A DNA stretch of 64,000 nt from Cetorhinus maximus. Lineage: Eukaryota. Of this stretch, positions 5,025 through 63,660 are shown piece after piece. The position numbers were made by a program, and so were the translations under genes. The stretch's first letter is position 1. Each line of letters begins with the position of its first letter. Where the stretch lies: the NCBI RefSeq assembly GCF_964194155.1, contig NC_135901.1, positions 16,740,001 to 16,804,000 on the forward strand, given 5' to 3'. The notes beneath the pieces are model-generated. The model was given only the letters and a program-made list of their open reading frames with translations, ran no database searches and was not told the origin of the DNA.

Positions 5025-6188
5025 TCAGAATGAACATGGTTCAGTCCTGGTATGATTAACAGCATCAACAGGAGTAGAATCCAAACCTTGCAATCGCTTG
5101 TGAATCCACTGGTGTGTTCGCAGGGGTGATGACTGAGTGAATGCCTTTCCGCAGGCATTACAGGTGAACGGCCTCTCCCCACTGTGAACTCGCTGGTGTT
5201 TCAGCAGATAGGATGAATGAGAAAATCTCTTCCCACACACAGAGCAGGTAAATGGCCTCTCCCCACTGTGAATGCTCTGGTGTGTCAGCAGGTTGGATAA
5301 CTGAGTGAATCCCTTCCCACACACAGAGCAGGTGAACGGCCTCTCTCCACTGTGTACTCGCTGGTGATTCAATAGGTTGGATGACCGAGTGAATCCCTTC
5401 CCACACACGGAGCAAATGAACGGTCTCTCCTCAGTGTGAACCTGCTGATGTGTCAGAAGGTTAGATGAACGGGTGAATCCCTTCCCACAGTCAGAGCAGG
5501 TGAACGGTCTATCCCCCGTCTGAAGTTGCTGGTGTATCAGAAGGTTGGATGAATTAATGAATCCCTTCCCACAGTCAGAGCAGGTGAACGGCCTCTCCCC
5601 AGTGTGAATTCGCTGGTGATTCAGTAGGGCAGACGGATGGCTGAATCCCTTCCCACAGTTAATACAGGTGAATGGCCTCTCTCCAGTGTGAGTATATTGA
5701 TGTGTTAGCAGATCCTTTTTGCTTTTAAAGCTCTTGTCACAGTCAGTACAATTAAAAAATTTGTTATCAGAGTGAACAAGTTGATGTGTCAGAAGGTGGG
5801 ATGACTGAATGAATCCCTTTCCACACACGGAGCAGATGAACGGCCTCTCCCCAGTGTGAATACGTTGATGTATCAGCAGATCTTTTCTGCATTTAAAACT
5901 CTTCTCACAGTCAGAACATGTAAACGGTCTCTTATCAGTGTGAACAAGTTGATGTGTCACAATGTGGGATGACCGAGCGAAGTCCTTCCCACACACAGGG
6001 CAGGTGAATGGCCTCTCCTCAGTGTGAACTCGCTGGTGTGTCCGAAGGTTATACAAATGGGTGAATCCCTTCCCACAGATGGAGCAGGTGAACGGTCTCT
6101 CCCCAGTATGACTGCGCCGATGAACTTCCAGTTGGGATGGGAAATTGAATCCCTTCCCACAGTCCATACATTTCCATGGTTTCTCCAT
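5025..6188 (-). CDS. C2H2 zinc-finger protein, 13 fingers (one degenerate), subfamily A (gene 1)
   Basis: 387-aa ORF of CxxC..HxxxH repeats with TGERPF linkers; Kozak-like accATGG; AATAAA on minus strand at 4974-4990. Confidence 0.92.
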   Translation of the reverse strand: MEKPWKCMDCGKGFNFPSQLEVHRRSHTGERPFTCSICGKGFTHLYNLRTHQRVHTEERPFTCPVCGKDFARSSHIVTHQLVHTDKRPFTCSDCEKSFKCRKDLLIHQRIHTGERPFICSVCGKGFIQSSHLLTHQLVHSDNKFFNCTDCDKSFKSKKDLLTHQYTHTGERPFTCINCGKGFSHPSALLNHQRIHTGERPFTCSDCGKGFINSSNLLIHQQLQTGDRPFTCSDCGKGFTRSSNLLTHQQVHTEERPFICSVCGKGFTRSSNLLNHQRVHSGERPFTCSVCGKGFTQLSNLLTHQSIHSGERPFTCSVCGKRFSHSSYLLKHQRVHSGERPFTCNACGKAFTQSSPLRTHQWIHKRLQGLDSTPVDAVNHTRTEPCSF

Positions 6189-6809
6189 GGTGTGGGGGTC
6201 CTTGTCTATCTCCAGGTTGGACGATTAGTTGAAGCCTTGTCCACACACAACACATGTACAGTTTCTCCCCGCTGTGAATGGTGCGATATTTTTGCAGACT
6301 GTGTAACTGCTTAAAGTTTTTTCCAAAGTCAGTTCACTGGAACACTCTCACTCGGGTGTGTGTGTGTTGAGGCTTTTCCAGTCACACCGATGTTTGAAAT
6401 CCTTTCCCAAAGACAGAATAGACAAACATGTCTCCTTCCACATTCAAAAGTTGATGATACTCAGGTCCTGATGAATTCAGTGCCTCTGACAGATCTTGAT
6501 GTGATGTTTGCTTTGCGTTTTCTGTCTGCCAGTCATCCCCGTTTCATACCCTGTAAAACGAGTTTACAAAAGTCATCACTTTAAATCCAGGACTGAAATT
6601 CAGAACAGACAATTGTAGTTTCTATGGAACATTTCTTCCTCTCTTGTTCCCCCAAAGCTGTAAATCCCCGTCCCACACACTCTCCTTCCTCCCTGGGATG
6701 AAATCCAAACCCATCTCACCATCTCCACCATTTCTTTCCTCCACTCCCAGTTTTCTCCCTCCCTCTCCTCTGCCTGGGTTCAGTCCTCCAGCTCCTGTGT
6801 CTCTGATTC

Positions 6810-7250
6810 AGGGTCTCAGGCGGGACCCCAGCTGCCGTCGGGCGGGACACAGGAGGGGGGACCCTCCCGGGTGGGTCTTACCCGGACCCTGAGTCCGTCC
6901 CCCCAGTTTCTGAGCCCCCGGGCGGCCCGCGGGCTCCCCGCAGTTTCTGAATCTCCAGCTCCGGAGCCTCTTCCCCTGAACCCGGCTCTGTCACCGGGAA
7001 GAAGCCCCGGAGCTGCAAACACGGGTCATGGAGGCTGTGATCCGGGATTGCGGCCTACACCGGGTGTTTCTGGATCCTCCCCACCCCGGCTCCCAGAACC
7101 GCTCCGCCCTCCGCCTCAGCGAATCTCACCCGCGTCTCCCGCACTCCCAGGGCTCTGAGCAAACTGACACTGCGCATGCTCCAGGTATCATCAGCATTGC
7201 GCCTGCGCGTTGGGCTCCTGCACAGTGACTAGGGCACTTTCACACACGCA
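6810..7250 (-). promoter_or_regulatory. CpG-island promoter and first exon of gene 1
   Basis: CpG-rich; NRF1-type TGCGCATGC (7171) and TGCGCCTGCGC (~7198); candidate donor GTAAGA at 6881 and acceptor at 6551. Confidence 0.7.
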
Positions 7251-8074
7251 GGAGATTGTGGGTATCGGCAGTGCCATTGAAACACAAAATAGAGAACGAA
7301 AACAATTTTCTGATACCCAATTGTGAACAAATAAAAAGAAAAATCACACGCAAATCCTAGTAAATGGGTGCTCTGCCATGTTCCATTTCTAGAAGTGATT
7401 TAAACATATTTCAAGCCAGCTCAAACGTGTTAAGGGCAAGTCATGTTCAACTAACTTGCTGTAAATTCTTTACAAATGCCCATTCCCTTTCCTTCTGCTG
7501 TATAATGGAAGTTCCGTGCATTGGTGTTTCTTTATCATTTGGTTCTGATCTTTATTGATTGGTCTACGGTCAAAGTTTCAATCCCATAACCACAAAGTAA
7601 TCACAAAAAAAATATTTTCCACTCACAATTACCCAGCACCCCAGCAGCTGGGATTCTGCATTGCGACTGGATGAGCTCCTGCTCACAGATTCTGCCTCCG
7701 ACAAAGGTTGTTCTTGTAGTGGCTGTCCCTGTGATTGATTTTTTGCGGGTTTTTCTGGGATAAAATTGCCCGTTGCCCCCGTACAGTTGGAACCCTGGTT
7801 CTGAAATACTGTCCGTATGATTTTAAGGCTTCCTGGAATAATGCACCGATGGAAATCTGCAATAATCCATGGTCCCATCTGAGTTGCAGATTTTAATGTG
7901 ATTGTCCAATCTACAAAAAATATCATTTCACCCCTTTAAACCTGATTCAGCTGATCCCCTCCACACATACTGCAAAAGATTATCTTTGAGATCAGCTGTT
8001 CCTTTATAGTCTGTAAGAAATACAAAAAATTCTGGAAAAATTCAGCAGGTCTGACAGCATCTGTGGAAAGAAAC

Positions 8075-8120
8075 ACAGAGTTAATGTTTCGAGTCCGTAT
8101 GACTCTTCTTCAGAGTCTGT
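8075..8120 (-). ncRNA. Minimal type I hammerhead ribozyme motif in a Penelope-like pLTR
   Basis: ACAGACT-CTGAAGA-A-GAGTC(atacg)GACTC-GAAA-cat-TA-ACTCTGT: core, stem II and stem I (6/7 bp) are all present. Confidence 0.7.
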
Positions 8121-8399: not shown

Positions 8400-8830
8400 C
8401 AAAATGATGCAGGGTTTCAGCCAATGAGGGACATCCGGATTCAGCCCCGCCCCTCATTCACTCCGATTGGTTGGAGGATCACACGCTCACGATCGGACCT
8501 CCAGCTCCGCCCCCTTTTCCTATTGGACCGGAGTTTCCGTCAATCCACAGGGCACTGTGATCTGGAGCATGCGCAGTGTGTGTAATGGCGGTGAACAGAG
8601 GCTTGTTTGTCGGATCCACAGGAGATAAGATAAAGGGCGGAGTGCAGGGAGAAATAAAGCCGGTAGGTGGACGGGGAGGGTTTGTAAGCACTCGATGCGG
8701 CTCTGAACCCAAAATAAGAAACTATCTGCAGGGCGAAGGCTGCGGGATCGGGCCTCCAGCAAAAGGCGCGGGTTAACAGCCGCCATCTTGAGCGGGGTTA
8801 ATGTGCAGCAGGGCGCATGCGCAGTCGTCC
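8400..8830 (+). promoter_or_regulatory. CpG-island promoter of gene 2
   Basis: CCAAT at 8421, 8466, 8522; GC boxes; NRF1-type sites at 8566 and 8813; YY1-type GCCGCCATCTTG at 8779. Confidence 0.75.
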
Positions 8831-9697
8831 CTGTCAGCAGGAGGAGAGGAGGTTGTGAATTTCTACCCTGGACTGACGGGGATGGATTTTGGAAACTCTT
8901 TTTACAGGGGATTGGAAGGGGAGGATTTACACACAGAGCAACTCAAAGCAAAGATCACATTAAGATCTGACTCGAGTCACTCGATTCATCAGGACCTGGA
9001 TATTATCGGTCTTTGAGTTTAAGCATTGAGTTCCAGGTCATTAACACTCAATGTGTGAAATTTCTTCCTCACATTCCTGCTGTAGATCTTACCCTAAATC
9101 TTAAATCTGTGTCTGTGATATTTTTATGATTAGCTAATACCTTATGTTTTTTTCATTCATTCACAGGATGTGGGCTTTGCTGGATGGGCCAGCATTTATT
9201 GCCCATCCCTAGTTTCCTTTGAAAAGGTGGTGGTAAGCTGGCCCTTCTAGGTGGTGGAGGTTCAGGGTTTTGAGTTTCTGTCAAAATTCTGGTTGAGTTG
9301 TAATCCCTCTTTCTCAAACGTTCCCTCTCCCACCCCAACCCTTCTCTCTCTTCCTGTCTTCTCCCATCTAGGCCTGTGCCTTGTGTAGGCCCAGACTGGG
9401 TGGCAGATTCCCTTCCCTGAAGGACATCAGTGAACCAGTTGAGTTTTTATGACAATCCAGCAGTTTTCATGGTCACTTTTCCCTGGTGCCGGCCCCACAA
9501 ATTACCAGATTCATTCAGCTCAATTTCACAACCTGTTTTTGTGGATTCTCTCTCACTCCCTTTTCTCTGTTTTAAATCAATTTCACAGGGTATTAGAAGG
9601 GGAGGATTTGCAGTTGGGAAACTGAAACCAAACATCACATCAGGATCTGACAGAGTTGCCCAGTTTATCGTCACCCAGATATCATCGGAAGTTGAAC

Positions 9698-10819
9698 ATG
9701 GAAGGAAAAAGCACCGTTCACAGTGGGGAGAAACCGTACACGTGTTCTGTGTGTGGACGAGGCTTCAACCGATCATCTAATCTGTCGAAACATAAATGCA
9801 GTCACAACAGGGAGAAACCGTGGAAATGTGGGGACTGTGGGAAGGGATTTAATTACCCATCAGAGCTGGAAAATCATCAACGAATTCACACTGGGGAGAG
9901 GCCGTTCACCTGCCCTGAGTGTAGGAAGGGATTTACTTGTTCGTCCAGCCTGCTGAAACATCGGCGAGTTCACACTGGGGAGAGGCCGTTCACCTGCTCC
10001 GAGTGTGGGAAGGGATTTGCTCGCTCATCCACCCTGCTGACACACCAGCGAGTTCACACTGACGAGAGACCTTTCAAATGTCCTGACTGCGGGAAGTGCT
10101 TTAAAAGTCCCCGGGAACTGACTGCCCATCAACGTGTTCACACTGACGAGAGGCCATTCAGGTGCTCGCACTGTGGGACTGGTTTCAAGACATTATTTAA
10201 CCTCACTGTACACCAGCGAATTCACACTGGGGAGAGCCCATTCACCTGCTCCAAGTGTGGGAAGGGATTTGCTAACACATCCACCCTGCTGAATCACCAA
10301 AGTGTTCACACTGATGAGAGACCTTTCAAATGTCCAGACTGTGGGAAGTGCTTTAAAAGTTCCGGGGACCTGATGATCCATCAACGTGTTCACACCGATG
10401 AAAGACCGTTCAGGTGCTCTCACTGTGGGACTGGGTTCAGACAATCATCTCAACTCATTGTACACCAGCGAGTTCACAATGGGGAGAGACCATTCACCTG
10501 CTCAGAGTGTGGGATGGGATTCACTCGCTTATCCATCCTGTTGACACACCAGCGCACTCACACTGGGGAGAGGCCATTCACCTGCTCTGAGTGTGGGAGG
10601 GGATTCACAACCACATCCTCCCTGCTGAGACACCAGCGAGTTCACACTGGGGAGAGGCCATTCAGCTGCCCCGAGTGTGGGAGGGGATTCACAACCACAT
10701 CCTCCCTGCTGAGACACCGGCGAGTTCACACTGGGGAGAGGCCATTCACCTGCCCCGAGTGTGGGAGGGGATTCATAACCTCATCCAAACTGCTGAAACA
10801 TCAGCAAGTTCACAAGTGA
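9698..10819 (+). CDS. C2H2 zinc-finger protein, 13 fingers, subfamily B (gene 2)
   Basis: [17 protein letters not shown]...; acceptor tttcacAG at 9587-9588; AATAAA at 10886 and 10924. Confidence 0.92.
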
Positions 10820-12878: not shown

Positions 12879-12879
12879 T

Positions 12880-14081: not shown

Positions 14082-14357
14082 TTTTTTTACTTATTTGTTC
14101 ATGGGATGTGGGTGTCGCTGGTGTCACTGGCTGGGCCAGCATTTATTGCCTATCCCTAATTGCCCTTGAGAAGGTGGTGGTGAGCTGCCTTCTTGAATCA
14201 CTGCAGTCCATGTGGGATAGGTACACCCACAGTGCTGTTAGGAAGTGGGTTCCAGGATTTTTCTTCCAGTGACAGTGAAGGAACGGCGATATAGTCCCAA
14301 GTCAGAATGATGTGTAGCTTGGTGGGGAACTTGAAGATGATGGCATTCTCATGCATC
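14082..14357 (-). mobile_element. 3' end of the second LINE family, inserted at the gene 3 stop codon
   Basis: Matches 24720-24960 and 41695-41940. Confidence 0.75.
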
Positions 14358-15056
14358 TTTGTGAACTCGCTGGTGTCTCAGCAGGGTGGATGAGTGAGCA
14401 AACCCCTTCTGACATACGGTGCAGGTGAATGGCCTCTCCCCAGTGTGAACTCGCTGGTGCTCCAGCTGGTTGGATAATGTAGTGAATCCCTTTCCACACA
14501 AGGAGCAGGTGAACGGCCTCTCCCCAGTGTGAATGCGCTGGTGTGTCAGCAGGTTGGCTAACTGAGTGAATCCCTTCCCACACTCAGAGCAGGTGAACGG
14601 CCTCTCTCCAGTGTGAACTCGCTGGTGTACAGTGAGGTCAGATAATTGCCTGAACCCAGTATGGCACCGAGAGCACCTGAATGGCCTCTCATCAGTGTGA
14701 ATACGTTGATGGCGCATCAGTTCACCAGAACTTTTATAGCACTTCCCACAGTCTGGGCATTTAAAAGGTTTCTCATCAGAGTGAACTCGCTGGTGAGCCA
14801 ATAGGTTGCATGACAGAGTGAATCCCTTCCCACACTCGGAGCAGGTGAACGGCTTCTCCCCGGTGTGACTGCGCCGATGAGATTCCAGCTGAACTGGAAA
14901 ATTGAATCCTTTCCCACAATCCCCACATTTACAGGGTTTCTCCTCAGTGTGACTGCGCTTGTGTCTCGACAGGTCAGATGATCGGTTGAAGCCTCGTCCA
15001 CACACAGAACATGTGTACGGTTTCTCCCAACTGTGAACGGTGTTGTTTCCTTCCAT
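14349..15056 (-). CDS. C2H2 zinc-finger protein, 8 fingers, subfamily B (gene 3)
   Basis: [17 protein letters not shown]...; acceptor at 15166-15167; stop codon lies in an inserted LINE fragment. Confidence 0.88.
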
Positions 15057-17145: not shown

Positions 17146-17369
17146 GCTTCATCACTGGATGAAGATCCTCTCAGTCTTTACCTAACAGTTTTGTGGAAGC
17201 CCCTTCACCACACGGGCTGCAGCGGTTCAAGAACAAAACCCACCATCAATTTCTCAACAGGTAACTGGGGATTGGCAATATGAGCTGCCTTGCTACTGAC
17301 TCCTATAAGCCCATCATAAATTAAAAGTATCTGCCTGTGTGAAATGGATTAACAGCTCCTGCAGGAATC

Positions 17370-17800
17370 CTTGTTCCTCCCGCTCCCGGCCGCTCCCATT
17401 CATACTCCAGGAGCCGCGCTCACTCTCACTGAGGCTGCGCATGCTCCGCGCAGACAGGCGGCTTCCGGGGGCGGAGCCTTCCTGCGCCTGCGCGTTACGG
17501 CCCTTCTGATGGAGATAGGGCGTATTCACTCCCGCGGAGCATTCTGGGTCTCCTTATCCGCCATCATTCAAAAAGCGTCCGGAGGGTGAGAAGTCTGTTC
17601 CAGTAATTTTGATACAATCCGTTCTTTACACCGAGAGGGCCGACACTGTTGATGTTTCTGCCAGTGACAGGTCCGGGTTAGCAGCCGCCATCTTTATAGG
17701 GATAATGTGCAGCCTGGCGCATGCGCAGCCGCTATCTCTATAGGGGGCAGAGCGCAGGCGCGGCCATCCTTGGACCGGATGCAGGAAGAAAAGAGGTTGT
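17370..17800. promoter_or_regulatory. Bidirectional CpG-island promoter between divergent genes 3 and 4
   Basis: NRF1-type sites at 17436, 17483, 17717; ETS cttccgg 17462; GC box; YY1-type site at 17684. Confidence 0.7.
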
Positions 17801-19920: not shown

Positions 19921-19929
19921 TGTTCATGT

Positions 19930-22194: not shown

Positions 22195-22698
22195 ATGGGG
22201 AAACCATGGAAATGTGGGGACTGTGGGAAGGGATTCAAATACTCATCCCGGCTGGAAACTCATCGACACACTCACACTGCGGGGAGACCGTTCCCCTGTT
22301 CCATGTGCCCAAAGGGATTCGCTCAGTCATCCGACCTTCTAAGGCACCAAGTCACTCACACTGAGGAGAGGCCATTCACCTGCTCCATGTGTGGGAAGGG
22401 ATTCATTAATTCATCCGACCTTCGGATACACCAGCGAGTTCACATTGGGGAGAGGCTGTTCACCTGTTCTGCCTGTGGGAAGGGATTCAGTCAGTCAGCC
22501 CACCTGCTGGCCCACCAGAGAGTTCACACTGGGGAGAGACAATTCTCCTGCTCCGACTGTGGGAAAGCATTCATCCATTCATCCCATCTGCTGAGACACC
22601 AGCGAGTTCACACTGGGGAGAGGTTGTTTACCTGCTCTGAGTGTGGGAAAGGGTTCACTCAGTCATCCCATCTGGTGAGGCACCAGCGAGTTCACTAG
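22195..22698 (+). CDS. C2H2 zinc-finger protein, 6 fingers, subfamily A (gene 4)
   Basis: 167-aa ORF, cgcaccATGG start; acceptor at 21852-21853; AATAAA at 22835. Confidence 0.85.
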
Positions 22699-29529: not shown

Positions 29530-30010
29530 GGTTGTGAATGTGCCCTATTTACACTCCAGTAGCCCAGTACGCAGGCGCAGTGCTGGACTGTATCTGGAGC
29601 ATGCGCAGTGTCACTTTGATCAGTGTCCTGGATTTTTTTCAGCGGGTGAGATTCGATGGGGCGGAGTGAGGAATGTAGCCGGGAGTCGGCGTCGAGAGGG
29701 AGCGGCGGCATCATAAACACTTGACGTAGGCCGCAAATCGGGAATAGGACTCTGCAAATCCCGCGTTTTCATCTCTGGGGCTTTTTCCCGGAAATAGGCC
29801 CAGTTTGATGGTCGCCATATTGGTTCAGTGGCCATCTTGGTGACGAAACAGAGCATGGGCGGGGCTTCAGGGCACCTGTGACCAGGAGAGAAAATCATTG
29901 GCTCATTGATTTTATTCTCGCGCTGCACACAGGAGATGGCGAATGTCCCGGGTTAATTACCGCCATCATTTGAAGGGCAATGTGCTGCTGGGCGCACGCG
30001 CTGCCATCCT
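29530..30010 (+). promoter_or_regulatory. CpG-island promoter of gene 5
   Basis: Homologous to the reverse complement of 7110-7250; NRF1-, YY1- and ETS-type motifs; candidate donor gtgaga at ~29646. Confidence 0.65.
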
Positions 30011-35421: not shown

Positions 35422-36626
35422 ATGGAAGGAGAAAGCACTGTTCACAGTGGAGAGAAACCGCACACGTGTTCTGTGTGTGGTCGAGGCTTCAGCCAATTAT
35501 CTGACCTATCAGAACATAAATGCAGACACAACAGGGAGAAGCCGTGGAAATGTGGGGACTGTGGGAAAGGATTTAATTACCCGTCTGACCTGAAAACTCA
35601 TTGGCGCAGTCACACTGGGGAGAGGCCATTCACCTGCTCCGAGTGTGGGAAGGGATTCACTCAGTCCTCCCACCTGCTGATACATCAATGTGTTCACACT
35701 GATGAGAGACCATTCAGGTGCTCTCACTGTGGGATGCGTTTCAGGCGATCATCTGACCTCAGTATACACCAACGAGTTCACACTGGAGAGAGGCCGTTCA
35801 TCTGCTCCAAGTGCGGGAAGGGATTCACTCGATCATCCAACTTGCTGATACACCAGCAAATTCACACTGGGGAGAGACCATTCACCTGCTCCGAGTGTGG
35901 GAAGGGATTCAATCATTCATCTGACCTGCTGCAACACCAGCGCGTTCACACTGGAGAGAGGCCATTCACCTGCTCTGAGTGTGGGAAGGGGTTCACTTGT
36001 TCATCAGACCTGCTGACACACCAGCGAGTTCACACTGGGGAGAGACCATTCATTTGCTCCAAGTGTGGGACAGGATTTGCTCGCTCATCCACATTACTGA
36101 GGCACCAGCGAGTTCACACTGACGAGAGACCTTTTAAATGCCCAGTCTGTGGGAAGTGTTATAAAAGCTCCAAGGAACTGTTGTCTCATCAACGTGTTCA
36201 CACGGATGAAAGACCATTCAGGTGCTCTCTCTGCGGGACTGGATTCAATCAATCATCTGACCTCACTGTACACCAGCGAATTCACACTGGGGAGAGGCCA
36301 TTCACCTGCACGGAGTGTGGGAAGGGATTCACTCAGTCATCCAATCTGCTCAGACACCAGCGAGTTCACACTGTGGAGCGACCGTTTAAATGCTCAGACG
36401 TGGGAAGTGTTATAAAGGTTCCCAGGAACTGATGTCCCATCAACGTGTTCACGCTGACGAGAGACCATTCAGGTGCTCTCAATGTGGGACTGGATTTAAG
36501 CGATCATCTCAACTCACTGTACACCAGCGAATTCACACTGGGGAGAGACCGTTCAGCTGCACAGACTGTGGGAAGGGATTCACTCAGTCTTCCGCTCTTC
36601 TGAGACACCAGCGAGTTCACAAGTAA
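35422..36626 (+). CDS. C2H2 zinc-finger protein, subfamily B (gene 5): 11 intact fingers, then a 1-nt frameshift and 3 more fingers
   Basis: ORFs 35416-36432 and 36390-36626 overlap; gac-gtggg at 36397-36404 lacks the T of gactgtggg. Confidence 0.8.
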
Positions 36627-36701: not shown

Positions 36702-39700
36702 TCACAGAATCACAGAATTTTAACAGCACAAAAGGAGGCCATCCGGCCTACCGTGTCTGCACCAGCTCTGCAAATGAGCATCATGGCCTAGTGCCATTGC
36801 CCTGCCTTTTCCCTGTACCCTTACACATTGTTTTGATCCAAATAACCATCTAATGCCTTCTTGAATGCCTCACTTGAACCTGGCTCCACCGCACTTCCAG
36901 ACAGAGCATTCCAGACCCGAACCACTCGTTGTGTGAAAAAGATTTTTCTCCTGTCCCACTTGCTTCTTTTATAAATCACTTTAAATCTGTGCCCTCTCTT
37001 TCTTGATCTTTTTACGAGTGGGAACAGCTTCTCCCCATCTACCCTGTCCAGACCCTTCATGATTTTGAACATCTCTATCAAATCTTCTCTTAGCCTTCTT
37101 CTCTCCAAGGAGAACAGCCTTAACCTCTCCAATTTATCCCCGTTGCTGAAGTTTCTCATCCCTGGGATTATTCTTGTAAACTCCTTCTGCACTCTCTCCA
37201 ATATCTTCACATCCTTCCTATAATATGGTGCCCAGAACTGAACACAATATTCCAACTGAGGTCTGGTGAGTGTCTTATATAAATCCAGCATAACCTGCCT
37301 GCCCTTGTACTCTATGTCCCTATTAATAAAGCCCAGGGCACTATAAGCTTTACTAATTGCTCTCTCCACCTGTCCTGCCACCTTCAATGATCTATGCACA
37401 TATACACCCAGGTCTTTCTGCTCCTATATCCCCATGTTCTTCCTACCAAAATGCATCACCTCAAATTTCTCCGCATTGAACTTCATCTGCCATCTATCTG
37501 CCCACTCCACCAACTTGTCTGTCCTCTTGAAGTTCCACACCGTCCTCCTCGCAGTCCACAACACTCCCAACTTGCATATCGTCTGCAAACTTTGAAATTG
37601 TTCCCTGCACACCAAGGTCTAGATCGTTAATATATATCAGGAAAAGCAAGGGTCCCAATACCAGCCCCTGGGGAACCCCACTACAAACCTTCCTACAGCC
37701 TGAAAAATATCCATTGACCATTACTCTCTGCTTCCCAGTTTTCAACCAATTTTGTATCCACATTGCTACTGTCCCTTTTATTCCATGAGCAATAACTTTT
37801 CTCACAAGTCTGTTGTGTGACACTGTGTCAAATGCGTTTTGATAGTCCATATACACCACATCAACTGCATTACCCTCATTCACCTTTTCTGTTACCTCTT
37901 CGAGAAACTCCAGCAAGTTAGTTAAACTTTAGTAATCCATGTTGATTCTCCCTTATCAACACATATTTTCCTATGTGACTATTAATTCTATCCCGAATAA
38001 TTGTTTCTAGAATCTTGCCCACTACTGAAGTTAAACTGACTGGTCTGTAATTGCTGGGCTTATCCTTGGAACCTTTTTTTGAACAAGGGCATAATGTTTA
38101 CAATTTTTCAGTTCTCTAGCACCACCCCTGAGTTTAAGGAAGACTGAAAGACTATGGCCAGTGCCCATGAAATTTCTACTCTCACTTCTTTCAATATCCT
38201 TGGATGCATCTCATTTGGTCCCAGTACCTTGTCAAGTTTAAGTACCGATAGTCTATTCAACACTTCCTCCTTATCAACTTTGAACCCTTCAGAGTCTGTC
38301 ACCATGGCCTGGGTAGCATCTACCTCCTTGGTAAAGACGGATGCAAAGTATTCATTTAATACCTCAGCCATGACCCCTTTGTCCATGCGTAAATTCCCTT
38401 TTCAGTCCCCAATCAGCCATACTCCTCTTTTTACCAACCTTTTACTATTTATATGCCTGTAGAAGACTTTGGGATTCCCCTTTATGTTGGCTGCCAGTCT
38501 CTTCTCATAATCCCTCTTCGCTTCTCTCATGTGCTTTTTCACCTCCCCTCTGAACCTTTTGCATTCGACTTGGTTCTCAATTGTATTTTCTACCTGTCAC
38601 CTGTCATAAGTGCACTTTTTCTTTTTATCTTAATTTCAATCTCCTTTTTCATCCAGAGAGCTCTGGATTTGTCAGCCCCACCTTTCCCTTTAGATGGTAT
38701 ATAGATTCATGGACGTTTACAGCACAGAAGGAGGCCATTCAGCCCATCGTGTCTGAGCTGGTCAACAAAGATCTAACTACACTAATCCCATTTTCCAGCA
38801 CTTGACCCATAGCCCTGGAGGCTATGGCAACTCAGGTGAATATCTAAATACTTGACTGTGCCCGACCCAATTCATTTTTTAAAGGTAGCCCATTGTTCAG
38901 CTACAGTTTTTCCTGCCAATCTTTTGTTCCAGTCTACCTGGCCCAGCTCCATTCTTGCTCCATTGAAGTCGGCTCTTGTCCAGTTAATTATTCTTACTCT
39001 GGATTGCCTATCGTGCTTTTCTCATCATCATCCTAAAACATGCAATACAATAATCACTGTCTCCTAAATGTTCCCCCACTGACACTTGATCTACTTGGCC
39101 AACCTAATTTCCAAGAACCAGGTCCAACAGTGGATTAGACACATACTTCTGGAGAAAATTCTCCTGAACACAATTTAGGAACCTTTGTCCCTCTCCGCCC
39201 TTTACACTACCAGTGTCCCTATCTATATTCGGGTAATTAAAGTCCCCCATTATAACTACTCTATAATGCCTGCATTTCTCTGTAATTTCCATGAGATTTG
39301 TTCCTCTACATCCTTCCCACTAGTTGGCGGTCTATAGGCTACACCAAGCAATGTAATTGCACCCTTTTTGCTCCTTAACCTTAGCCAAATTGATTCTGTC
39401 CTTGAACCCCCTGGGACATCCTCTTTCTCCAGCACTGCAATGGTCTCCTTAACCAATACCACCACCCCTCATCCTTTCCTTCCTTTCCTGTCTCTTCTGA
39501 ACACCTTGTACTCGGGAATATTTAACACCCAGTTCTGCCCTTCCTTGAGCCAGGTCTGTTATTGCCACAACATCACATTTCCACATGGCAGTCTGCACCT
39601 GTAACTCCCCAATCTTATTTACTATTCTCTGTGCATTCACATGCATGCATAATAACCCTGATTTGGCTTTTGTTACTTTCTCCCTTGCCCCGACTTTACC

Positions 39701-40280
39701 TATTAACTTACTCTTTTCTAAACTAGTACTCTCTGTCCCTCCCAGTATTTTGTGCACCCTGGTATTCCTCTCTAATATTTTCTCTTGATTCCTACACTCC
39801 TGCTGAGCTAGTTTGAAGCCCTCCCAACAGCACTAGCAAAATGCCCTGCAAGGAGCTCAGTCCCGGCTCTGTTCAGGTGCAACCCATCTGGCTTCTACAG
39901 GTGCCAACTCTCCCAGAGCCTGTCCCAGGAATCTAAAGCCCTCCCTCCGGCACCACTTTTCCAGCCATGCATTCATCTGCCTTACCCTCCTACTTCTGTA
40001 ATCACTAGCACATGGCTCTGGGAGTAATCCGGAGGTTACTACAGCTGAGGCCCTGCTTGTTAATTTTCTACTTAGCTCCCTAAATTCTGATTGCAGGACT
40101 AAATCCCCCTTCCTCCCTAAGTCATTGGTACCAATGTGGACCACGACCTCTGGCTGATCACCCTCCCCCAAAAGAATGTCCTGCAGCCGCTCTGTGACAT
40201 CCTTGACCCTGGCACCAGGGAGGCAACATACCATCCTGGAGTCACTTCTACGGCCACACAAACACCTGCCTGTTTCCCTA
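36702..40280 (-). mobile_element. Long CR1 LINE with ORF1 esterase, endonuclease and RT relics
   Basis: CLPGARVKDV..VVHIGTND (SGNH-type ORF1), YRPP, IMGDFNYP, FADD; nested CR1 tail at ~38700-38850. Confidence 0.9.
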
Positions 40281-40679
40281 ACTTGCATCTTTCTCCAGTT
40301 TCTCTCCTATCTTCTATCTCACTCAGAGCTCATCTTGCCTCTGAGACGTGCCTTCTGCTTCCTTGACACTATTCTCACTAAACTGCTGACCATCCAACTT
40401 CCAAATTTTAGACGACATCCTTAACGGTTCTCTCTCTCTTTTGGTACTGTCCCTCTCACCTTTAAATCCACTGTTGTCTCCCATCATTAAAAAAACCTTC
40501 GACTCCACCGTCCTCGCCCTCTCTTTTTGCTGACTTTGCACTTGCTGGTAAACTGTGAGATCTTTAATTTTTTTCAAGTTTGGATAAAAGGTTACCGACA
40601 TGAAGCATTCACTCTGTTTCCTTCTCCATAGATGTTGTTTGACCTGCTGAGGTTGTCCAATAGTTTGTTTTGTGGTTGT

Positions 40680-41201: not shown

Positions 41202-41289
41202 GAGTGTGAATCCCCCCCGGACAGAGGGGAACTGACCATCCATCTCTAGCTCTAATTCCCAAACAGAAAATGCCGCCAAGAATCAGCAA

Positions 41290-41690
41290 GTCCGGCTGAG
41301 TCTGTGGCCGCTCTCAGCGTTTGAAATCGTCACAATGCCCGGGTGATTGACGGCAGCTCCGGACCAATAGGGAAAGGGAGGGGGAACTGGAGGAACCTAC
41401 AGGAGTGGCTGGTCCTCCAACCAATCGAAATGAATGAGGGGCGGGGGCGGGCAGTGACTGAAGCATGCGCAGTGCGGGTAATGGCGATGGGCAGACGGGT
41501 CCACAATGGATAAAGGTGGGGGACGCCGGGGCGGAGGGAGCGATGGATCCGGCGAGTGGACGGAGAGGCTCCGGAAACATGTGTAAACCGCAAACCCCGG
41601 AAATAAACTGACCGGTTCTCCCTCCCCCGTTTGCACCGAGCGGGGCCGCAGCTCCCAGATCAATGAAGAACCGGTTTGTATCAGGCTGGA
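41290..41690 (+). promoter_or_regulatory. CpG-island promoter of gene 6
   Basis: Two CCAAT boxes, GC boxes, NRF1-type AGCATGCGCA at ~41462; homologous to 8400-8660. Confidence 0.7.
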
Positions 41691-41694
41691 CATT

Positions 41695-42178
41695 GGTTCT
41701 TTTATTCATTCACGGGATGTGGGCTTCACTGGCTGGGGCAGCATTTACTGCCCATCCCTAGTTGCCCTTGAGAAGGTGGTGGTGAGCTGCCTTCTTGAAC
41801 CGCTGCAGTCCATGTGGTGTAGGTACAGCCACAGTGATGTAAGGAAGGGATGTTGACCCAGTGACAGTGAAGGAACGGGATATATTTCCAAGTCAGGAAG
41901 GTGAGTGATTTGGAGGGGAACTTCCAGGTGGCGGTGTTCCCATCCAACTGCTGCCCTTGTCCTTCTAGATGGTAGTAGTCGTGGGTTTGGAAAATGCTAT
42001 CGAAGGAGCCTCGGTGGATTCCTGCAGTGCATCTTATAGATGGTACTCACTGCTGCTACTGTTCGTCGGTGGTGGAGGGAGTGAAGGTTTGTGGATGGGG
42101 TGCCAATCAAGAGGGCTGCTTTTTCCTGGATGGTGTCAAGCTTCTTGAGTTTTGTTGGAACTGCACTCATCCAGGCAT
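41695..42178 (-). mobile_element. Second LINE family 3' fragment
   Basis: AWMSAVPTKLKKLDTIQEKAA. Confidence 0.8.
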
Positions 42179-43215: not shown

Positions 43216-43974
43216 ATGGAGAAACCATGCAAATGTGGGGAATGTGGGAAGGGATTCCGGTCCCCATCTGCGCTGGAATCTCATCGCCGCATTCACACTG
43301 GGGAGAGGCCGTTCACCTGCTCTGATTGTGGAAAGGGATTCACTCAGTTATCCCACCTGCAGATACACCAGCGACTTCACACCGGGGAGAGGCCGTTCAC
43401 CTGCTCTGATTGTGGGAAGGGATTCACTAACTCTTCCAATCTGCGGACACACCAGCGAGTTCACACGGGGGAGAGACCGTTCACCTGCTCCAAATGTGGG
43501 AAAGGTTTCAGTGATTCATCCAGCCTGCTGATACACCAGCGAGTTCATACTGGGGACAAATTATTCAACTGCTCTGTATGTGGGAAGCAATTCAGCCGAT
43601 TATGCAACCTTCTGCGACACCAGCGAGCTCACACTGGGGAGAGGCCATTCACCTGCTCTGAGTGTGGGAAGGGATTTGCTGATCCATCCATCTTGCGGAA
43701 GCACCGGCGAGTTCACACTGGGGAGAGGCCATTCATCTGCTCCATGTGTGGGAAGGGTTTCACTCAGTTAACCAACCTGCTCACACACCAGCGAGTTCAC
43801 ACTGGGGAGAGGCCTTTCATCTGCTGTGAGTGTGGGAAGGGATTCAGTGATTCATCCACCCTACTGCGACACCAGGGTGTTCACACTGGGGAGAGGCCGT
43901 TCACCTGCTCCATGTGTGGGAAACGATTCACTCGGTCATCTCACCTGCTGAGACACCAGCGAGTTCACCAGTGA
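43216..43974 (+). CDS. C2H2 zinc-finger protein, 9 fingers, subfamily A (gene 6)
   Basis: 252-aa ORF; accATGG; acceptor tttacAG at 42858-42859. Confidence 0.9.
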
Positions 43975-53006: not shown

Positions 53007-53849
53007 TTACTTGTGAACTCTCCGGTGTCTCAGCAGACTGGATAACTGACTGAAACCCTTCCCACACATAGAGCAGGTGAATGGCCTCTCACCAGTGTGA
53101 ATTCGCTGGTGTCTCAGCAGGGTGGACGAATCTCTGAATCCCTTCCCACATTCAGAGCAGATGGACGGTCTCTCCCTGGTATGAACTCGCTGTTGCATCA
53201 CCAGGTTGCATGACTGAATGAATCCTTTCCCGCATCCAGAGCAGGTGAATGGCCTCTTCCCATTGTGAACATGTTGGTGTGTCTGCAGGTGGGATAATTG
53301 AGTGAATCCTTTCCCACACTCGGAGCAGATGAAAGGCCTCTCCCCGGTGTGAACTCGCTGGTGCGTCAGCAGGTTGGATGACTGAGGGAATCCCTTCCCA
53401 CATGTAGAGCAGATAAAGGGCTTCTCCCCGGTGTGAACCCGCTGGTGTGTCAGGAGGGCAGATGAATCGCTGAATCTCTTCCCACACTCAGAGCAGGTGA
53501 ATGGCCTCTCCCTGGTGTGAACTCGCTGGTGCATCAGCAGGTTGGATGACTGAGTAAATCCCTTCCCACACTCAGAGCAGATAAATGGCCTCTCCCCAGT
53601 GTGAACTCGCTTGTGTGTCAGCAGGTGAGATGAATTACTGAATCCCTTCCCACATTCAGAGCAGATGAATGGCCTCTCCCCGGAGTGAACTCGCTGGTGT
53701 TTCAGCAGGGTGGATGACTGAGTGAATGCTTTCCCACACTCAGAGCAGGTGAAAGGCCTCTCCCCAGTGTGAATGCGTTGATGAGTTTCCAGCGCAGATG
53801 GGGTGCAGAATCCCTTCCCACAGTCACCACATTTGTACGGTTTCTCCAT
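53007..53849 (-). CDS. C2H2 zinc-finger protein, 10 fingers (one lacking the first His), subfamily A (gene 7)
   Basis: 280-aa ORF; acceptor at 54219-54220; donor GTGAGT at 55192-55197 (minus). Confidence 0.9.
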
Positions 53850-55329
53850 GGTGCAGGTGTCCTTGTGTCCCTCCAGGTTAACTGCTCAGTTGAAACCTTG
53901 TCTTCACACAGAACATGTGTACAATCTCTCCCCGCTGTGAATGGCGTAATGTTGTTTCAGACTGTATAACTGGTTAAAGCTCTTTTCACAGTCAGTTCAC
54001 TGGAGCATTCTCACTCAGTTGTCTGTGTCTCATTGCTTTTCCAGTCACACTGATGCTTGAAATGTTTTCCCACAGACAGAACAGGGGAACATTTCTCCTT
54101 CCATATTCCACATTCAAAGGGCTGATGATATTCAGGTTCTGATGAATCCAGTAACTCTGTCAGATCTTGACGCGATATTTGGTTTGTGTTTCCCAGATAC
54201 AAGTCCTCTCCTAATATCCTGTAAAAGAAGTTTACAAAAGTCATCATTGTCAGTGCAGGATAAAAATTCACAACACATAACTCTAGTTTCTACGGAACAT
54301 TCTTTCTCTCGTATTCCCCAGAAGCAGTAACTCTCTGTGCCTCCATTCTCACTGTGCTGTACCTCCCAAATCTCCTGAAGGTGCCATTTCATGCTGATCA
54401 GCAGATCCATGTGCACTGCTTCCTGTCCAGGGCACAGGGGCCTTGGAAATCATTATGCAGGCTATATATATATGTATACATTACTGGATTTAAAATGTGC
54501 ATAATATACACTGCACTACTTGATTAAAGATACAGAGAGGATGCAAGGAAGAGCTTTATTTAGGAGCGAGTGTGCATGACCTGGAACTCTCTGCCTGCAA
54601 GGCTGGAGGAACTCGCGATGATCAGTGATTTCAAAATGAAATTGGTGGACACTTGAAGGAAATAAACTTGTAGGAGAACGGGGCATAGAGGGAGAATGGG
54701 ATGGATAGCTCTACAGAGAGTCGGCATGGACTTGAGTTGCTGAATGCATTCCTGTGCTGTAATGACTCGATGACGGGAAATATATAACGGTAGCTAGAGT
54801 ACTATATTACAAGACTAGACATATTTATAAATGAAAGTTATTATTGGTCAACAAAAAATATATCAAATATTTACCATATAAAAACATTCGACATATCTCT
54901 GCCCTATATTAGTTTACTGCCACCTTAAATGTCAGGCATCTCCTGGGGAATCCGCCTATTTTATTGGAAATACTAGGAAAGAGGCTATCCTTTTAGCCAG
55001 ACAAATAAATGTGTCAAGCTGAGGGAGTAAAGTATGTCATTGTCTTTAAGAGAGAGCGAGAGAGAAGGACAGACCTGGGCCAACCTTTCCAGAGTCTGCA
55101 CCCTCTTCCTTTCCCTTCAGTTTCTGCAGGTCAACAATTTAAACCCAGAATTAGAAAAGAAATGGAAAGGGGGAGAAAAAGAAAGTGTTTTACTCACAGG
55201 TATTTGACATGGGACTGGGGAGAAAGTTTTCGTGTGTGAGAAGCTAAATCCTCATTCAGAGAGAGAAGCAGCATCAGCAGCTTTGCTGGGCAGTAATGGA
55301 CAGGTTTAAAAGCTCGAGGGATCCATTGT

Positions 55330-55970
55330 CCAACATGCGCATTCAAACAATGGGGGAAGTTCCGTGTCCTCATTGCGACAGTGGCCGCGCTCTGATTGGT
55401 TGGAGGACCATCCACCTTCCGGTCGTCCAGCTCCTCCCATTGGTTAACCTCGGTCCGACCACAATGAGGGAGAGTAACCCGAGCGCGTGTTCGGTGGAGA
55501 GAGTTTGACCATCAAGTCCAGTGCTCTCAATGTGAACTGGGAACGCTCCTCTGAATCATTGTGACGCCTGAATCAGCCAATAGGACTGACTGTGCTCCGC
55601 GGTGACGTCCTCGGGTTCCAGTTTGCGGACCAGGCGCGCGGACACGGGAGCCCCACCCCCACCCATTGTTCCCCCTCCCCCACCCATTGTTCCCCCTCCC
55701 CCACCCATTGTTCCCCCTCCCCCACCCATTGTTCCCCCTCCCCCTGCACTTCCTCGAGCCAAAGTTTCCAGGCAACCGGCTGACGGCTCCGGCCAGAGCG
55801 AGAAGCCGCTCAGCGAATTCCCCCTCCCCCCCTCTGTCTACGGCGACCGGCTGGTCCAAAAAGAGATCGAGAGCGACCGCTGACGGCAGCCGCACTGCGC
55901 CTGCTTCGGACAGAAAACGCTTTCTGCGCCTGCGTGCTGGGCTGCCGGCTATGGGGGTGCGGGAGGGGAC
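55330..55970. promoter_or_regulatory. Bidirectional CpG-island promoter between divergent genes 7 and 8
   Basis: CpG-rich; CCAAT boxes, TGACGTC, NRF1-type TGCGCCTGC; flanked by homologous outward-facing GTGAGT donors. Confidence 0.75.
55655..55745 (+). repeat. 21-bp C-rich tandem repeat, ~4 copies
   Basis: Unit CCCACCCATTGTTCCCCCTCC. Confidence 0.9.
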
Positions 55971-57445
55971 TGTGTAAAATGTCTTCTCATTTTCTTCCAA
56001 TGCAATTTGACTTTAAACGGCACAGCATTTGTTTTTAGGTTCATAAACATTAAAACTTCTTCCTCGGTCCAACATCTGTGAGTAAATCACTTTCTTTCCT
56101 TCCCCTGGGAAATACAGAGAGTTGCGGGAATCTGTAACTGGAATTAGTGCCAAATATGCTGAGGGGGGAAATGCTGGTGATTTTGTGGACCAGGCTGATG
56201 CTCCAGCTGTTTAAAGTCATATTTATCCGGTCTATTGAAATGCCATTTGTCTGTTAATGCAGGCTTCATTTATGTTGAATTTAGTTTGATTGTTACCGGA
56301 ATCGTTTTTAAAAAATAAAACCTTGTCCTTCTGTTTATTCCGTTGGGGTTGTCTGGGAATTTGTTTATTTTAAGGTTATTGGTTTCCACAGGGATCGTAA
56401 CAACAGAGAAATGTCTAGTTATTTATTATTCTGTATTAAAGTTCATTTATTATTATTTCTAGTCCTGTAATAATACTGTAGCTGCATTATATATTTCCAG
56501 TCATAAACGCATTACAGCACAGATGGTGTCCAATTGGAAACTCAGATCCATGCTGACATTCTGTAGAGTAATCCAGTCGATCCCATTCTCCATCTGTATC
56601 CTCGTTCCCCTGAAAGTTTTTCTTTCAACTCCCTATCCAATTTCATTTTGAAACCATTGATCATCTCCGGTTCTGCCATCCTCATAGGCATCGAATTCCA
56701 GGCCATGACTACTTGCTGTCTAAATAAAGTTCTTCCTCATATCCCCTCTGTATCGCTATTCAAGTATTACAATCTTTTTGGCTCCTTCAGGAGAATTGGG
56801 AATGTATAAATGAGATATAACAGAGTGAGAATGAAGGGAGTAAAAACAGAAAATGGTGCAAAAAACTCAGCAGGTCTGGCAGCATATGTGGAGCAAGAAA
56901 CAGAGCTAACATTTTGAATCTGTCTGAACATTCCTGAGAGCTCAAAATGCAGGGAGCATGTTGGGGATGGAGATTTACAGCCTTTGGGGAATGAGAGGGG
57001 AAAGAATGTTCCATAGAAACTAGAATTGTCTTCTGAATTTCTATCGCAGACTTTCTGTGATGACTTTTGTGAACTCCTTTTACAGGACATTAGAAGGGGA
57101 TGATTTGCAGTCAGAAAACTCAAACCAAAGGTCACATCAAGATCTGGCAGAGCCACTCGATTCATCGGGATCGGTATATCAGCAGCCTTTGAATCTAGAA
57201 GAAATATTTGTCTGTTATGTCTGCTTCAAAATATTTGAAACATCAGTGTGACTGGAAAAGCACCGATTCTCACACACCCGAGTAAGTGTATTCCAATGCA
57301 CTGGCTTTGGAAAGAGCTATGAACTGTTATACAGTCTGAAGAAACATTTCAGCTTTCACAGCCAGGGAGACCGTACACAGGTTCTGTGTGTGAACGAGGC
57401 TTCAACTGATTGTCAAACCTGGAGAGACACAAGGGCACTCGCACC

Positions 57446-58120
57446 ATGGAGAAACCATGGAAATGTAGGGATTGTGGGAAGGGATTCCGATGCCCGTCTG
57501 CACTGGAAATTCATCAACGCAGTCACACTGGGGAGAGGCCATTCACCTGCTCTGAGTGTGGGAAGGCATTCAGTGGTTCATGGCAGCTGCACGCACACCA
57601 GCGAGTTCATGCAGTGGAGAGGCCATTCACCTGCTCTCAGTGTGGCAAGGGATTCAGTGATTCATCAACCCTGCTGAGACACCAGCGAGTTCACACTGGA
57701 GAGAGGCCGTTCACCTGCTCTGAGTGTGGGAAGGGATTAACCCAGTTATCCAACCTGCTAACACACCAGGAAATTCACACCGGGGAGAGGCCATTCACCT
57801 GCTCTCATTGTGGGAAAGGATTCACTCGGTTATTCAACTTGCAGACACATCAGCGAGTCCACACCGGGGAGAGGCCGTTCACCTGCTCTGTGTGTGGGAA
57901 GGGTTTCACCCAGTCATCCAACCTGCTGCTACACCAGCAACTTCACACTGGGGAGAGGTCATTCCCCTGCTCTCAGTGTGGGAAGGGATTCACTCGATTA
58001 TCCAGCTTACAGAGGCACCAGCGAGTTCACACCGGGGAGAGGCCATTCATGTGCTCTGTGTGTGGGAAGGGATTCACTCAGTCATCCCACCTGCAGACAC
58101 ACCAGCGTGTTCACAAGTGA
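57446..58120 (+). CDS. C2H2 zinc-finger protein, 8 fingers, subfamily A (gene 8)
   Basis: cgcaccATGG at 57446; acceptor at 57084-57085; donor GTGAGT at 56078. Confidence 0.9.
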
Positions 58121-59465: not shown

Positions 59466-59474
59466 CTTCAAGCC

Positions 59475-59790
59475 CACTGAAACACCAGTTCTTCACACTG
59501 GGGAGAGGCCATTCACCTGCTCTGAGTGTGGGAAGGGATTCACTCGTCATCCCACCTACTGGCACACCAGGGAATTCACAAGTAACTATCGTGATTGGAT
59601 TTTGCTGTTAATCACAAACAGAACTGAACTATGTTCATTGGGGTCTGTTTCTGCTGATGTTAATAAACTCCAGCCCAGTTATAGGGCATAGTATTGTGGA
59701 TAAAATTCAAATCAGCAGCTTTGTGTTAAATACAGTGTGTTGAGTCTTTTTAGTATCTCTGAGACAAGTTAGTTCCTTTTGAAGGGCTCT
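59475..59790 (+). pseudogene. 3' remnant of a subfamily B ZNF gene (last finger plus 3'UTR)
   Basis: cacactggggagaggccattcacctgc..., frameshifted, followed by a 3'UTR matching 10820-11000. Confidence 0.8.
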
Positions 59791-61490: not shown

Positions 61491-61524
61491 TGGGAGATGT
61501 CACAGAGCTGGAAGCAGGCAGCCT

Positions 61525-62080
61525 GGAGTATTGTGTGCAGTTTTCGTCTCCTTACCGAAGAAAGGATATACTTGCCACAGAGGAAGTGCCTGCAAAGCTT
61601 CACCAGCCTGATTCCTGGGATGGCAAGATTGTTGTATGAGGAGAGTTTTGGGTCGACTAGGGCTGTATTCACTAGAGTTCAGAAGAATGAGAGGGGACGT
61701 CATTGAAACGTATAAAATTCGGGCAGAAGTGTACAGACTGGATGCAGGGATGATGTTTCCCCTGGCTGGGTTTGGGGGAGTGAGTGGTGGGGGGCGTCTG
61801 GAACAAGGGATCAATCTCAGGATATGGTGCAGGCCATTTAGGACTTAGTTGCGGAGAAATTTCTTTGCTCAGTGCGTGGTGAACCTGTGGAATTGTCTAA
61901 CACAAAAGGCTGTGGAGGCCAAATCGCTGAATAGATTTCTAGACATGAAAGGCATCAAGGGGTTTGGGGAAAGAGGGAGAGTATGATGTTGAGGTAGAGG
62001 GTTAGCCATGATCATTTGAATGGAAGAGCAGGCTCGAGGGGCCAAATGGCCTACTCCTGCTCCTATTTTCTATGTTTCTA
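61525..62080 (+). mobile_element. CR1 3' fragment
   Basis: LGLYSLEFRRMRGDVIETYKI; tail tctatgtttcta. Confidence 0.85.
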
Positions 62081-62224
62081 AGTGTCTATGCCTTGGTAAT
62101 GGAGCCGATGTTGGTCACAAAATCAGTTCAAGGTGAAATCAACATTGAGATGATGAACAATGTGGCTCAGACTCAGGTGGTGGCCAGAATAACAACAGAA
62201 CAATAGAATCCAACCAATACAGTC

Positions 62225-63660
62225 AGATGTGAACTTATTGTTGTGTCAGAAGGTTGAATGATCGAGTGAATCCCTTCCCAGATTCAGTGCAGGTGAATGG
62301 TTTTCTCTCCATTGGTATTTCATCTGATCTTTAGAGCTTTGAAAACTCTTCAAACAGTGAGAACAATTAAAAGGTCTCTTATCAGACTGAACAACCTGAT
62401 TGGCAGTGAGGTTGGACACACAAGTGAATCAGGATCGGATGTGTCAATAAATTTCAGTTATGGAGCAGCTCTATTAAGAGAAAGGCAGGACAAACTTAAA
62501 GACTAAAGGTAAAGTTCAGGCAGTGATTTACAGAACAACGTGAGCTCTATACTTCCCTTGTCATATCTGGACAGCAGAGCACACTTCTTCCCTTGGAGCT
62601 TCCAGTTTTCTTGTGGAGTTTCCAGCTTTCGTGTTTCTTTCTCTTCTTTCCTTTGTTCTTTTCTCCACTGCACCAAACCCCTCAGGTGGACTGTTCTTAT
62701 GCTGGAAACCCCCCAACTGGCTCCCCTGAGGCCACCAATCAGAACTGTCCATGGACATTTCACTATTCAATCATGTGGCTCTTGTCCAATCACAGGTGTG
62801 TTCATGTGAACAGCATTCGCCTGTTGATGAGAGCACACACATATTCCTCTGTGATTACATAGAACTTCTGCACTTCCACCATCTCACAGTTCTAAACTCA
62901 GACAAGCCGGTTCAAAGCATGACATCACCTCCACAGATTCTACCCTACAGATCAACACACAGGCAAAGAAAGAACACAACTTCTGCAGACTATATTAATA
63001 CACAGTCAAAGAAAGAACAGAATTCTCACAGACTGTATCCGGAGAATGGATGACTGAGTGAAGCTCTTCCCACACACGGAGTAAGTTTTACGGTTTCTGC
63101 TCACTGTGAATGTGCTGGTGTTTCTGGAAGCTGGATGATTCGATGAATCCCTTCCCACACACAGTGCAGGTGAATGGCCTCTCTCCAGTGTGACTGTGCC
63201 AATGAGTTCCCAGCCGGGATAGAGAACTGAATCCCTTCTCACAGTCCCCACATTTCCACGGTTTCTCCCTGTTGCTTAATCCTTGCTGACAATTCTTATT
63301 GACTTACATACTCTTCAAAGTGAAACCTCCATTATGAAATTAAATTATCAAACAACAGGAATCAAAACAGTGAAATATTTTACAGGCACATCAATAAAAG
63401 TTTAATCAATCGACATTGATATTGATGAAGTTTTGAAGTCGCTGAGTTCAATCATTTCTTACATAGCAGCAGTAACATTTGGTAAAGGGGAATCCACAAC
63501 AAAGGCTGGTTTGAGACCTACTCAGCAGAGATGACATCTATCATTGAAGCAAAAAGCAAAGCTTACCTGATGCACAACATAAACCCAACAGCTAAGTACT
63601 GTGTGCAGTACCCTGTTACTAGTGTCCATGTGTCTCTCCAGGTTGGACGATCAGTTAAGC
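62225..63660 (-). pseudogene. Fragmented subfamily A ZNF pseudogene
   Basis: Finger remnants at ~62225-62400, 63050-63270 and 63620-63660, separated by insertions and frameshifted. Confidence 0.75.

Follow-up and report, generated by a model that had tools for sequence, protein, structure and literature searches.

Large zinc-finger (ZNF) families that keep pace with transposon load are considered to depend on an attached effector, whether KRAB, FiNZ or a KRAB-like domain. The number of ZNF open reading frames (ORFs) follows the number of retroelements across animals, and counts of 1,851 in white shark, 3,586 in small-spotted catshark, 1,223 in thorny skate and 475 in elephant shark have been reported (PMC10547256). 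Per-chromosome counts are held in the code file of the same paper, whose main text contains no passage on 'cartilaginous' or 'chondrichth'. The shark ZNF expansion is already in print as numbers (Wells 2023 supplement). KRAB families are reported lost in cartilaginous fishes (PMC8455134), and in whale shark PRDM9 is the only KRAB gene (PMC11603059), which agrees with the single KRAB match described below. Here, we describe a stretch of 64,000 nucleotides from Cetorhinus maximus (G000:C24:16,740,001-16,804,000, hereafter the window) and the C2H2 ZNF genes it carries, whose ORFs encode fingers without an effector domain. The genome measures 3.99 Gb and chromosome C24 65,164,054 bases. No description of finger-only shark ZNF genes was found in the open literature, subscription journals being outside the coverage.

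Finger-only ORFs and the search for an effector

A six-frame scan of the window revealed nine same-strand groups that together hold 81 C2H2 motifs; the arrays have a tandem period of 84 bp. The units are of Kruppel type (C-x2-C-x12-H-x3-H, joined by TGE(K/R)P linkers). Eight ATG-initiated finger-only ORFs of 167-387 amino acids (aa) with 6-13 fingers each were found (genes A to H, Table 1), as claimed in a first-pass annotation of this DNA, and one of them, E, is frameshifted. That annotation listed two remnants; there are three, at ~59.5, 62.3 and 63.0-63.7 kb. All eight ORFs begin in a strong start context, which we take to be of Kozak type, and fall into two start types, MEG and MEK. Conserved backbones with variable recognition helices had also been noted, and 1,079 fingers confirmed this: variability peaks at helix positions -1, +3 and +6 (3.1-3.4 bits), position +2 is Ser in 75%, and 493 different fingerprints occur. 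Among arrays with all fingers in one ORF (n = 59), the stop comes one residue past the last finger in 44, and the first finger is preceded by 6 or 15 residues in 45. Judged by these predicted ORFs, the products of most intact arrays would be finger-only proteins of the OZF-like kind.

The absence of KRAB, SCAN, BTB and SET domains from the coding exons had been claimed from the letters alone, and a profile search of the upstream exons had been proposed as a check. Pfam models were run against two sets of ORFs: sense-strand upstream ORFs with a minimum length of 38 aa (186 of 187 scanned) and, from 66 aa upwards, the remaining ORFs (114 of 236 scanned). None of the four domains was present in these 300 ORFs, no effector domain was detected in the upstream set, and the matches obtained were to RVT_1, endonuclease, GDSL esterase, RT_RNaseH and degenerate fingers. 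Genome-wide, the KRAB model PF01352 gave one match, on C34 (L001 1360-1680, minus strand; 152 candidates, 150 scored), in an exon that is presumably PRDM9-like. Of the 150 SCAN matches scored (from 4,987 candidates), none lies on C24. None of the five modules shared among the 100 upstream regions compared was convincingly codon-periodic. An exon like the 28-aa one of FiNZ was not seen, the frame being closed before the ATG and no coding-like module lying upstream; this comparison was made without a FiNZ model.

The lack of an effector is structural as far as the predicted exon structure goes: between a shared putative acceptor and the ATG, the frame is closed by stops. Because of these stops, an effector encoded in an unrecognised upstream exon, which the annotation had allowed for, is unlikely. 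An in-frame stop stands 8, 12 or 24 codons upstream of the ATG in all eight window genes. Of the MEG-type copies, 64 of 68 have the acceptor-like site ahead of the fingers, as do 58 of 63 MEK-type copies; counted from this site, the finger frame stays open as far as the ATG in 5/64, 0/58 and, in the window, 0/8. Predicted acceptors lie at 6550/6551 (A, where splicing is likewise a prediction), 15165 (C), 42860 (F), 54218 (G) and 57086 (H). Seven in-frame stops follow the site in gene F; the corresponding part of gene A holds four, together with five upstream ATGs, and only ~1 kb separates the CpG island of A from its ATG. The length and phase of the stretch vary between copies. Substitutions within it are spread without codon periodicity (0.144/0.148/0.152 and 0.108/0.131/0.111 by codon position), unlike those of the first 20 codons (0.077/0.103/0.157 and 0.041/0.100/0.135), and its divergence is 3.56% versus 3.55% for non-coding DNA. 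The majority MEK-type leader can be read as a 36-codon linker and, behind it, three dead fingers that contain two stops common to the copies, and the ATG occupies the position where a finger linker would be expected. The MEG-type leader has the linker in common with the MEK type and starts earlier. An annotated shark relative, P0059, begins at the MEG ATG as well.

Copies, relatives and selection

The description of the locus as a 64-kb cluster missed its scale. The family is chromosome-wide and evolves by birth-and-death through multi-gene segmental duplication. Over at least 86 kb, the window together with its flanking DNA aligns colinearly with C24:9.11-9.20 Mb (93-97% identity), and the block is present in 13-16 copies on C24. 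Gene B has 25 copies at 96-100% identity (19 intact), 16 of them on C24 and 9 on unplaced contigs that may include alleles; gene E has 18 at 97-100%, 13 on C24; for gene A, 30 copies at 97-100% were fetched, of which 16 are intact. Copies of A, B and E keep the same spacing. The birth-and-death claim of the annotation is borne out by these block copies, by gain and loss of fingers and by frequent broken copies: the copy of D at 9.14 Mb is a pseudogene, that of E at 9.16 Mb holds 14 fingers in one ORF, that of H at 9.18 Mb has 5 fingers versus 8 in the window, and frameshifts or truncations affect 6 of the 25 copies of B and 14 of the 30 of A.

C24 was sampled at 55 spread 10-kb places (one sample aimed at a match was dropped, and one that was kept holds a listed match). 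Arrays were present in 24 of the 55, with 32 arrays and 308 fingers in total, which extrapolates to roughly 3,500-4,000 arrays on the chromosome, pseudogenes included. In two unaimed samples, C23 and C25 gave no arrays. Exact matches to the two start-type patterns number 838 and 522 in the genome (reversed controls, 0), and 97 and 99 of the first 100 places listed for each are on C24. Single family members or start motifs were also seen off C24, at C1:28.58 Mb (L104), C11:10.15 Mb, C13:58.28 Mb and C22:29.3-29.8 Mb.

When gene B was used as a protein query, most matches were tetrapod KRAB-ZFPs, recovered through general finger similarity; among the 120 matches listed, 5 were chondrichthyan. 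The finger backbone fits all five of these (basking shark, sawshark, stingray twice, skate) and 0 of the 115 others, which upholds the view of a cartilaginous-fish family. The predicted ray proteins P0094 (21-41) and P0106 (167-187) combine the same backbone with a common N-terminal motif that has a PxVxL core, which we assume to be HP1-binding. It is possible that this motif, known from these two gene models, is an HP1-recruiting effector in batoids. With that query it was not found in the present genome or in the loci examined, and in the protein collection it matches only itself. The predicted sawshark protein P0105 joins a retroelement, histone H2A and the linker and fingers of the family. 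No histone motifs occur in 20 chromosome samples, so P0105 is probably a fused gene model; histone genes may lie inside the sawshark cluster.

For clades B, A and F, omega was estimated with our own codon model on 18 sequences per clade, after five early-broken copies had been dropped and identical rows merged. The pN/pS ratio was 0.44 in clade B and 0.42 in clade A. Between the window and the 9.1-Mb copy, pN was 0.005 at structural, 0.013 at contact and 0.016 at other residues, with pS of 0.038-0.066 and non-coding divergence of 0.036. Such purifying selection on the coding sequence suggests that the proteins are likely made and used. The contact-residue omega was 0.46 in B (p = 0.022 vs 1), 0.91 in A (p = 0.77) and 0.27 in F (p = 0.009), never different from that of the other residues. 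In 17 independent pairs it was 0.43 (confidence interval 0.27-0.64) versus 0.42 for the backbone, as estimated with a finger filter that fixes Cys and His. The positive-selection site model M2a was preferred over M1a in clade A (p = 0.005), where one of six flagged sites is a contact residue; clades B and F gave no M2a signal. Fingerprints are nearly constant within a clade (5 and 8 strings). These estimates have low power at ~2% divergence and can be biased by CpG mutation and gene conversion. Diversifying selection on the recognition helices, which had been proposed as a check, was not seen among recent copies, with contact omega of 0.27-0.91 and never above other sites. With iqtree2, contact omega came out at 1.82 for clade A and 0.98 for clade B; these per-class values were discarded because kappa remained at 1 and the structural class at its starting value of 1.0.

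Features of the window

The coordinates are collected in Table 1. Gene pairs A/B, C/D and G/H stand head to head around CpG islands, whose motifs we take to be of NRF1, YY1 and CCAAT type. Truncated acceptor-and-linker modules without fingers lie upstream of B, D and E (8850-9010, 17780-17980 and 31350-31550, plus strand) and may be non-coding exons or remnants of lost genes. A 91-base module at ~41240-41330 (plus strand), upstream of the F promoter, is near-invariant in 11 genes of both start types; by eye it looks like a short high-copy repeat at 8010-8110.

Table 1. Genes, remnants, putative promoters and other features, in window coordinates.
Feature	Position	Strand	Remarks
Segmental duplication unit	~-6.7 kb to +79 kb from window start		at least 86 kb; encloses 1..64000
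Gene A ORF	5025..6188	-	387 aa; MEK-type start; 12 canonical fingers and one without the last His; tail of 24 aa
5' part of A finger exon	6189..6550	-	dead linker and dead fingers
CpG island	6801..7300	.	likely promoter of A; motif at 7172
CpG island	8401..8900	.	likely promoter of B; B head-to-head with A
5' part of B finger exon	9589..9697	+	in-frame stop at 9623
Gene B ORF	9698..10819	+	373 aa; MEG-type start; 13 fingers; stop one residue past last finger
Gene C ORF	14349..15056	-	235 aa; MEG-type; 8 fingers; stop 8 codons upstream of ATG
CpG island between C and D	17301..17800	.	likely shared promoter region
Gene D ORF	22195..22698	+	167 aa; MEK-type; 6 fingers; dead fingers upstream, from 21854
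CpG island	29551..29750	.	possible promoter of E
Gene E	35422..36624	+	MEG-type; ORF 35422-36432, 336 aa, 11 fingers; frameshift near 36400, after finger 11, two further fingers out of frame
Long decayed LINE	36824..40306	-	esterase ORF1, endonuclease, reverse transcriptase
CpG island	41251..41750	.	likely promoter of F
Gene F ORF	43216..43974	+	252 aa; MEK-type; 9 fingers
Gene G ORF	53007..53849	-	280 aa; MEK-type; 9 canonical fingers
CpG island between G and H	55301..56000	.	G and H head-to-head
Gene H ORF	57446..58120	+	224 aa; MEK-type; 8 fingers
Remnant	59470..59660	+	last finger and 3' UTR of lost gene
Remnant	62200..62420	-	decayed fingers and 3' UTR
Remnant I	63034..63660	-	MEK-type; insertion splits start region; two fingers left
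LINE, long interspersed nuclear element; UTR, untranslated region.

The DNA between the genes contains LINE reverse transcriptase, endonuclease and esterase fragments and one RT_RNaseH fragment. Matches resembling LINE proteins cover at least 12.5 kb of the window, and the long decayed element beside gene E is presumably of the CR1/L2 kind. The RT_RNaseH fragment (28819-29208, minus strand), beside a LINE fragment, points to a long terminal repeat (LTR)-type element. The claim that the genes are embedded in retroelements stands for LINE fragments and one LTR-type fragment. Penelope and endogenous retroviruses, which the annotation had named as test sets, were not identified among the scanned window ORFs. 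A tandem repeat at 16360-17145 (18 copies of a 44-base unit, 93% identity) adjoins the C/D promoter, and an inverted repeat of ~340 bases at 33600-33950 is formed by two copies of a short interspersed repeat. No tRNA genes were found in the window.

Interpretation and comparison with known systems

The explanation we favour, with a probability of roughly 0.5, is that the window is a block copy whose finger-only proteins recognise specific DNA sequences, probably within repeat-derived sites, and work either by occupying them or through partners that the fingers bind. Transcription would start at a CpG-island promoter with one or more non-coding first exons, the transcript would be spliced onto the shared acceptor, and translation would begin at the ATG within the finger exon, so that what was once the linker and as many as three fingers would now act as 5' UTR. 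The ancestral gene may have had a coding linker, and perhaps a coding exon upstream of it; it would then have lost its N-terminal part and gained start codons inside the finger exon before multiplying. The leader is composed of former linker and fingers, which suggests that the family probably multiplied after the N-terminal loss. Since no repressor domain is encoded, action by occupation of repeat-derived sites or by partners drawn in via the fingers is proposed. A precedent is ZNF146/OZF, an effector-less protein that binds LINE-1 (PMC8896011). New specificities would come from duplicated blocks in which fingers are then shuffled and helices change slowly, fast selected point changes being a less likely source.

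Several observations weigh against this explanation. Only 59 of 108 complete arrays (at least 5 fingers) keep all fingers in one ORF. Four of the 64 MEG-type copies have an open leader with a long ORF, three of them forming one clade, and MEK-type leaders carry 1-8 upstream ATGs each, which could limit translation. The paralog copies counted above are segmental and not independent, and some unplaced contigs may be alleles. Splicing was checked in four contig sets from public runs of relatives, presumed to be RNA and swamped by paralogs; no clean intron was found at a predicted acceptor among the best 15 of 482 and the best 15 of 96 joints. Some of these contigs span predicted acceptors unspliced, and others span the stop of A and B unspliced. 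Read depth in the presumed RNA runs falls on the intron side of both predicted acceptors and rises there in the DNA-sized run; it was given no weight, since parts of a gene cannot be ranked by contig depth. Finally, ZNF146/OZF and ZNF507 bind LINE-1 DNA, and in HEK293 cells the loss of ZNF146, and likewise of ZNF507, was not followed by L1 de-repression (PMC8896011); L1 stays repressed after ZNF146 loss, so occupancy need not mean silencing.

An arms race of the KRAB-ZFP kind, in which young retroelements are silenced via a co-repressor recruited in trans and the helices are under positive selection, would fit the variability at -1, +3 and +6 with its 493 fingerprints, the M2a result in clade A (p = 0.005), the 700-3,600 ZNF ORFs and high retroelement counts of sharks (PMC10547256) and block duplication like that of the mouse Chr4 KZFP cluster (PMC11952569). 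That no diversifying selection was seen at contact residues among recent copies, at low power, weakens this reading: contact omega is 0.46, 0.27 and 0.91 in B, F and A and 0.43 versus 0.42 for the backbone in the 17 pairs, one of six flagged sites in clade A is a contact, and M2a is silent in B and F. We regard it as improbable. To the same degree we doubt that the family is a product of largely passive amplification by unequal crossing-over in a repeat-rich chromosome, in which only a subset of the genes matters and many copies are either poorly translated or redundant, or the proteins bind to RNA or chromatin with no sequence-specific targets. Blocks copied whole with their transposable elements (TEs), the broken copies (6/25 B, 14/30 A and 49/108 complete arrays), the numerous upstream ATGs and the near-constant fingerprints within clades would all be expected from such a process. 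Against it stand the purifying selection in recent clades, which includes the contact residues of B and F, the retention of start contexts and CpG islands, and the backbone common to sawshark, stingray and skate proteins.

The least probable alternative, and a rather remote one, is an upstream effector exon joined by splicing to a cryptic acceptor that lies within the array of fingers, so that the stops are skipped. In 4 of 63 MEK-type copies an AG does follow a pyrimidine run close to the ATG, the exon structure is a prediction, and the two predicted ray proteins share the backbone and carry the N-terminal PxVxL-core motif. However, no codon-periodic module is shared upstream, Pfam found no effector in the 186 upstream ORFs, a search of this genome with the ray motif gave no match, gene A leaves only ~1 kb between CpG island and ATG, and P0059 starts at the MEG ATG.

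A broader and more speculative proposal, which we put forward as doubtful, is that a chromosome-sized repertoire of thousands of bare-finger shark and ray proteins, multiplied after the ancestor's N-terminal exon was lost and new start codons arose inside the finger exon, control retroelements without an attached repressor and so form a third vertebrate solution beside KRAB and FiNZ. With an effector-less family of thousands under purifying selection across elasmobranchs, it becomes testable whether bare fingers can control repeats. The family also bears on what preceded KRAB-TRIM28 in repeat control, and a family-wide knock-down in the zebrafish style could be aimed at its two shared start contexts, with their 838 and 522 exact copies.

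In the case of the mouse Chr4 KRAB-ZFP cluster, the likeness lies in tandem C2H2 arrays, a single large last exon, variable helices, and birth-and-death with multi-gene segmental duplication that includes TEs (PMC11952569). Unlike tetrapod KRAB-ZFP clusters, the shark genes lack a KRAB exon, their acceptor-to-finger stretch is closed by stops, and the family spans tens of megabases with thousands of arrays. The FiNZ-ZNF genes of zebrafish Chr 4q and other cyprinids are likewise a KRAB-less lineage expansion on one repeat-rich chromosome, but they have a conserved, acidic upstream coding exon of 28 aa, whereas no upstream coding exon was found for the shark genes; positive selection was reported in 4 of 7 FiNZ clades with contact enrichment in 2 (PMC10547256), compared with a site signal in 1 of 3 shark clades and contact enrichment in none. 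The KRAB-like ZNFs of ray-finned fish are similar in that TE control without TRIM28 has been proposed, but they retain an N-terminal KRAB-like domain that co-precipitates with TRIM33 (PMC11603059), which the shark genes do not. ZNF146/OZF and ZNF507, with 9-10 fingers and no other identifiable domain, resemble the shark proteins; they are single conserved genes (PMC8896011), whereas the shark family numbers thousands.

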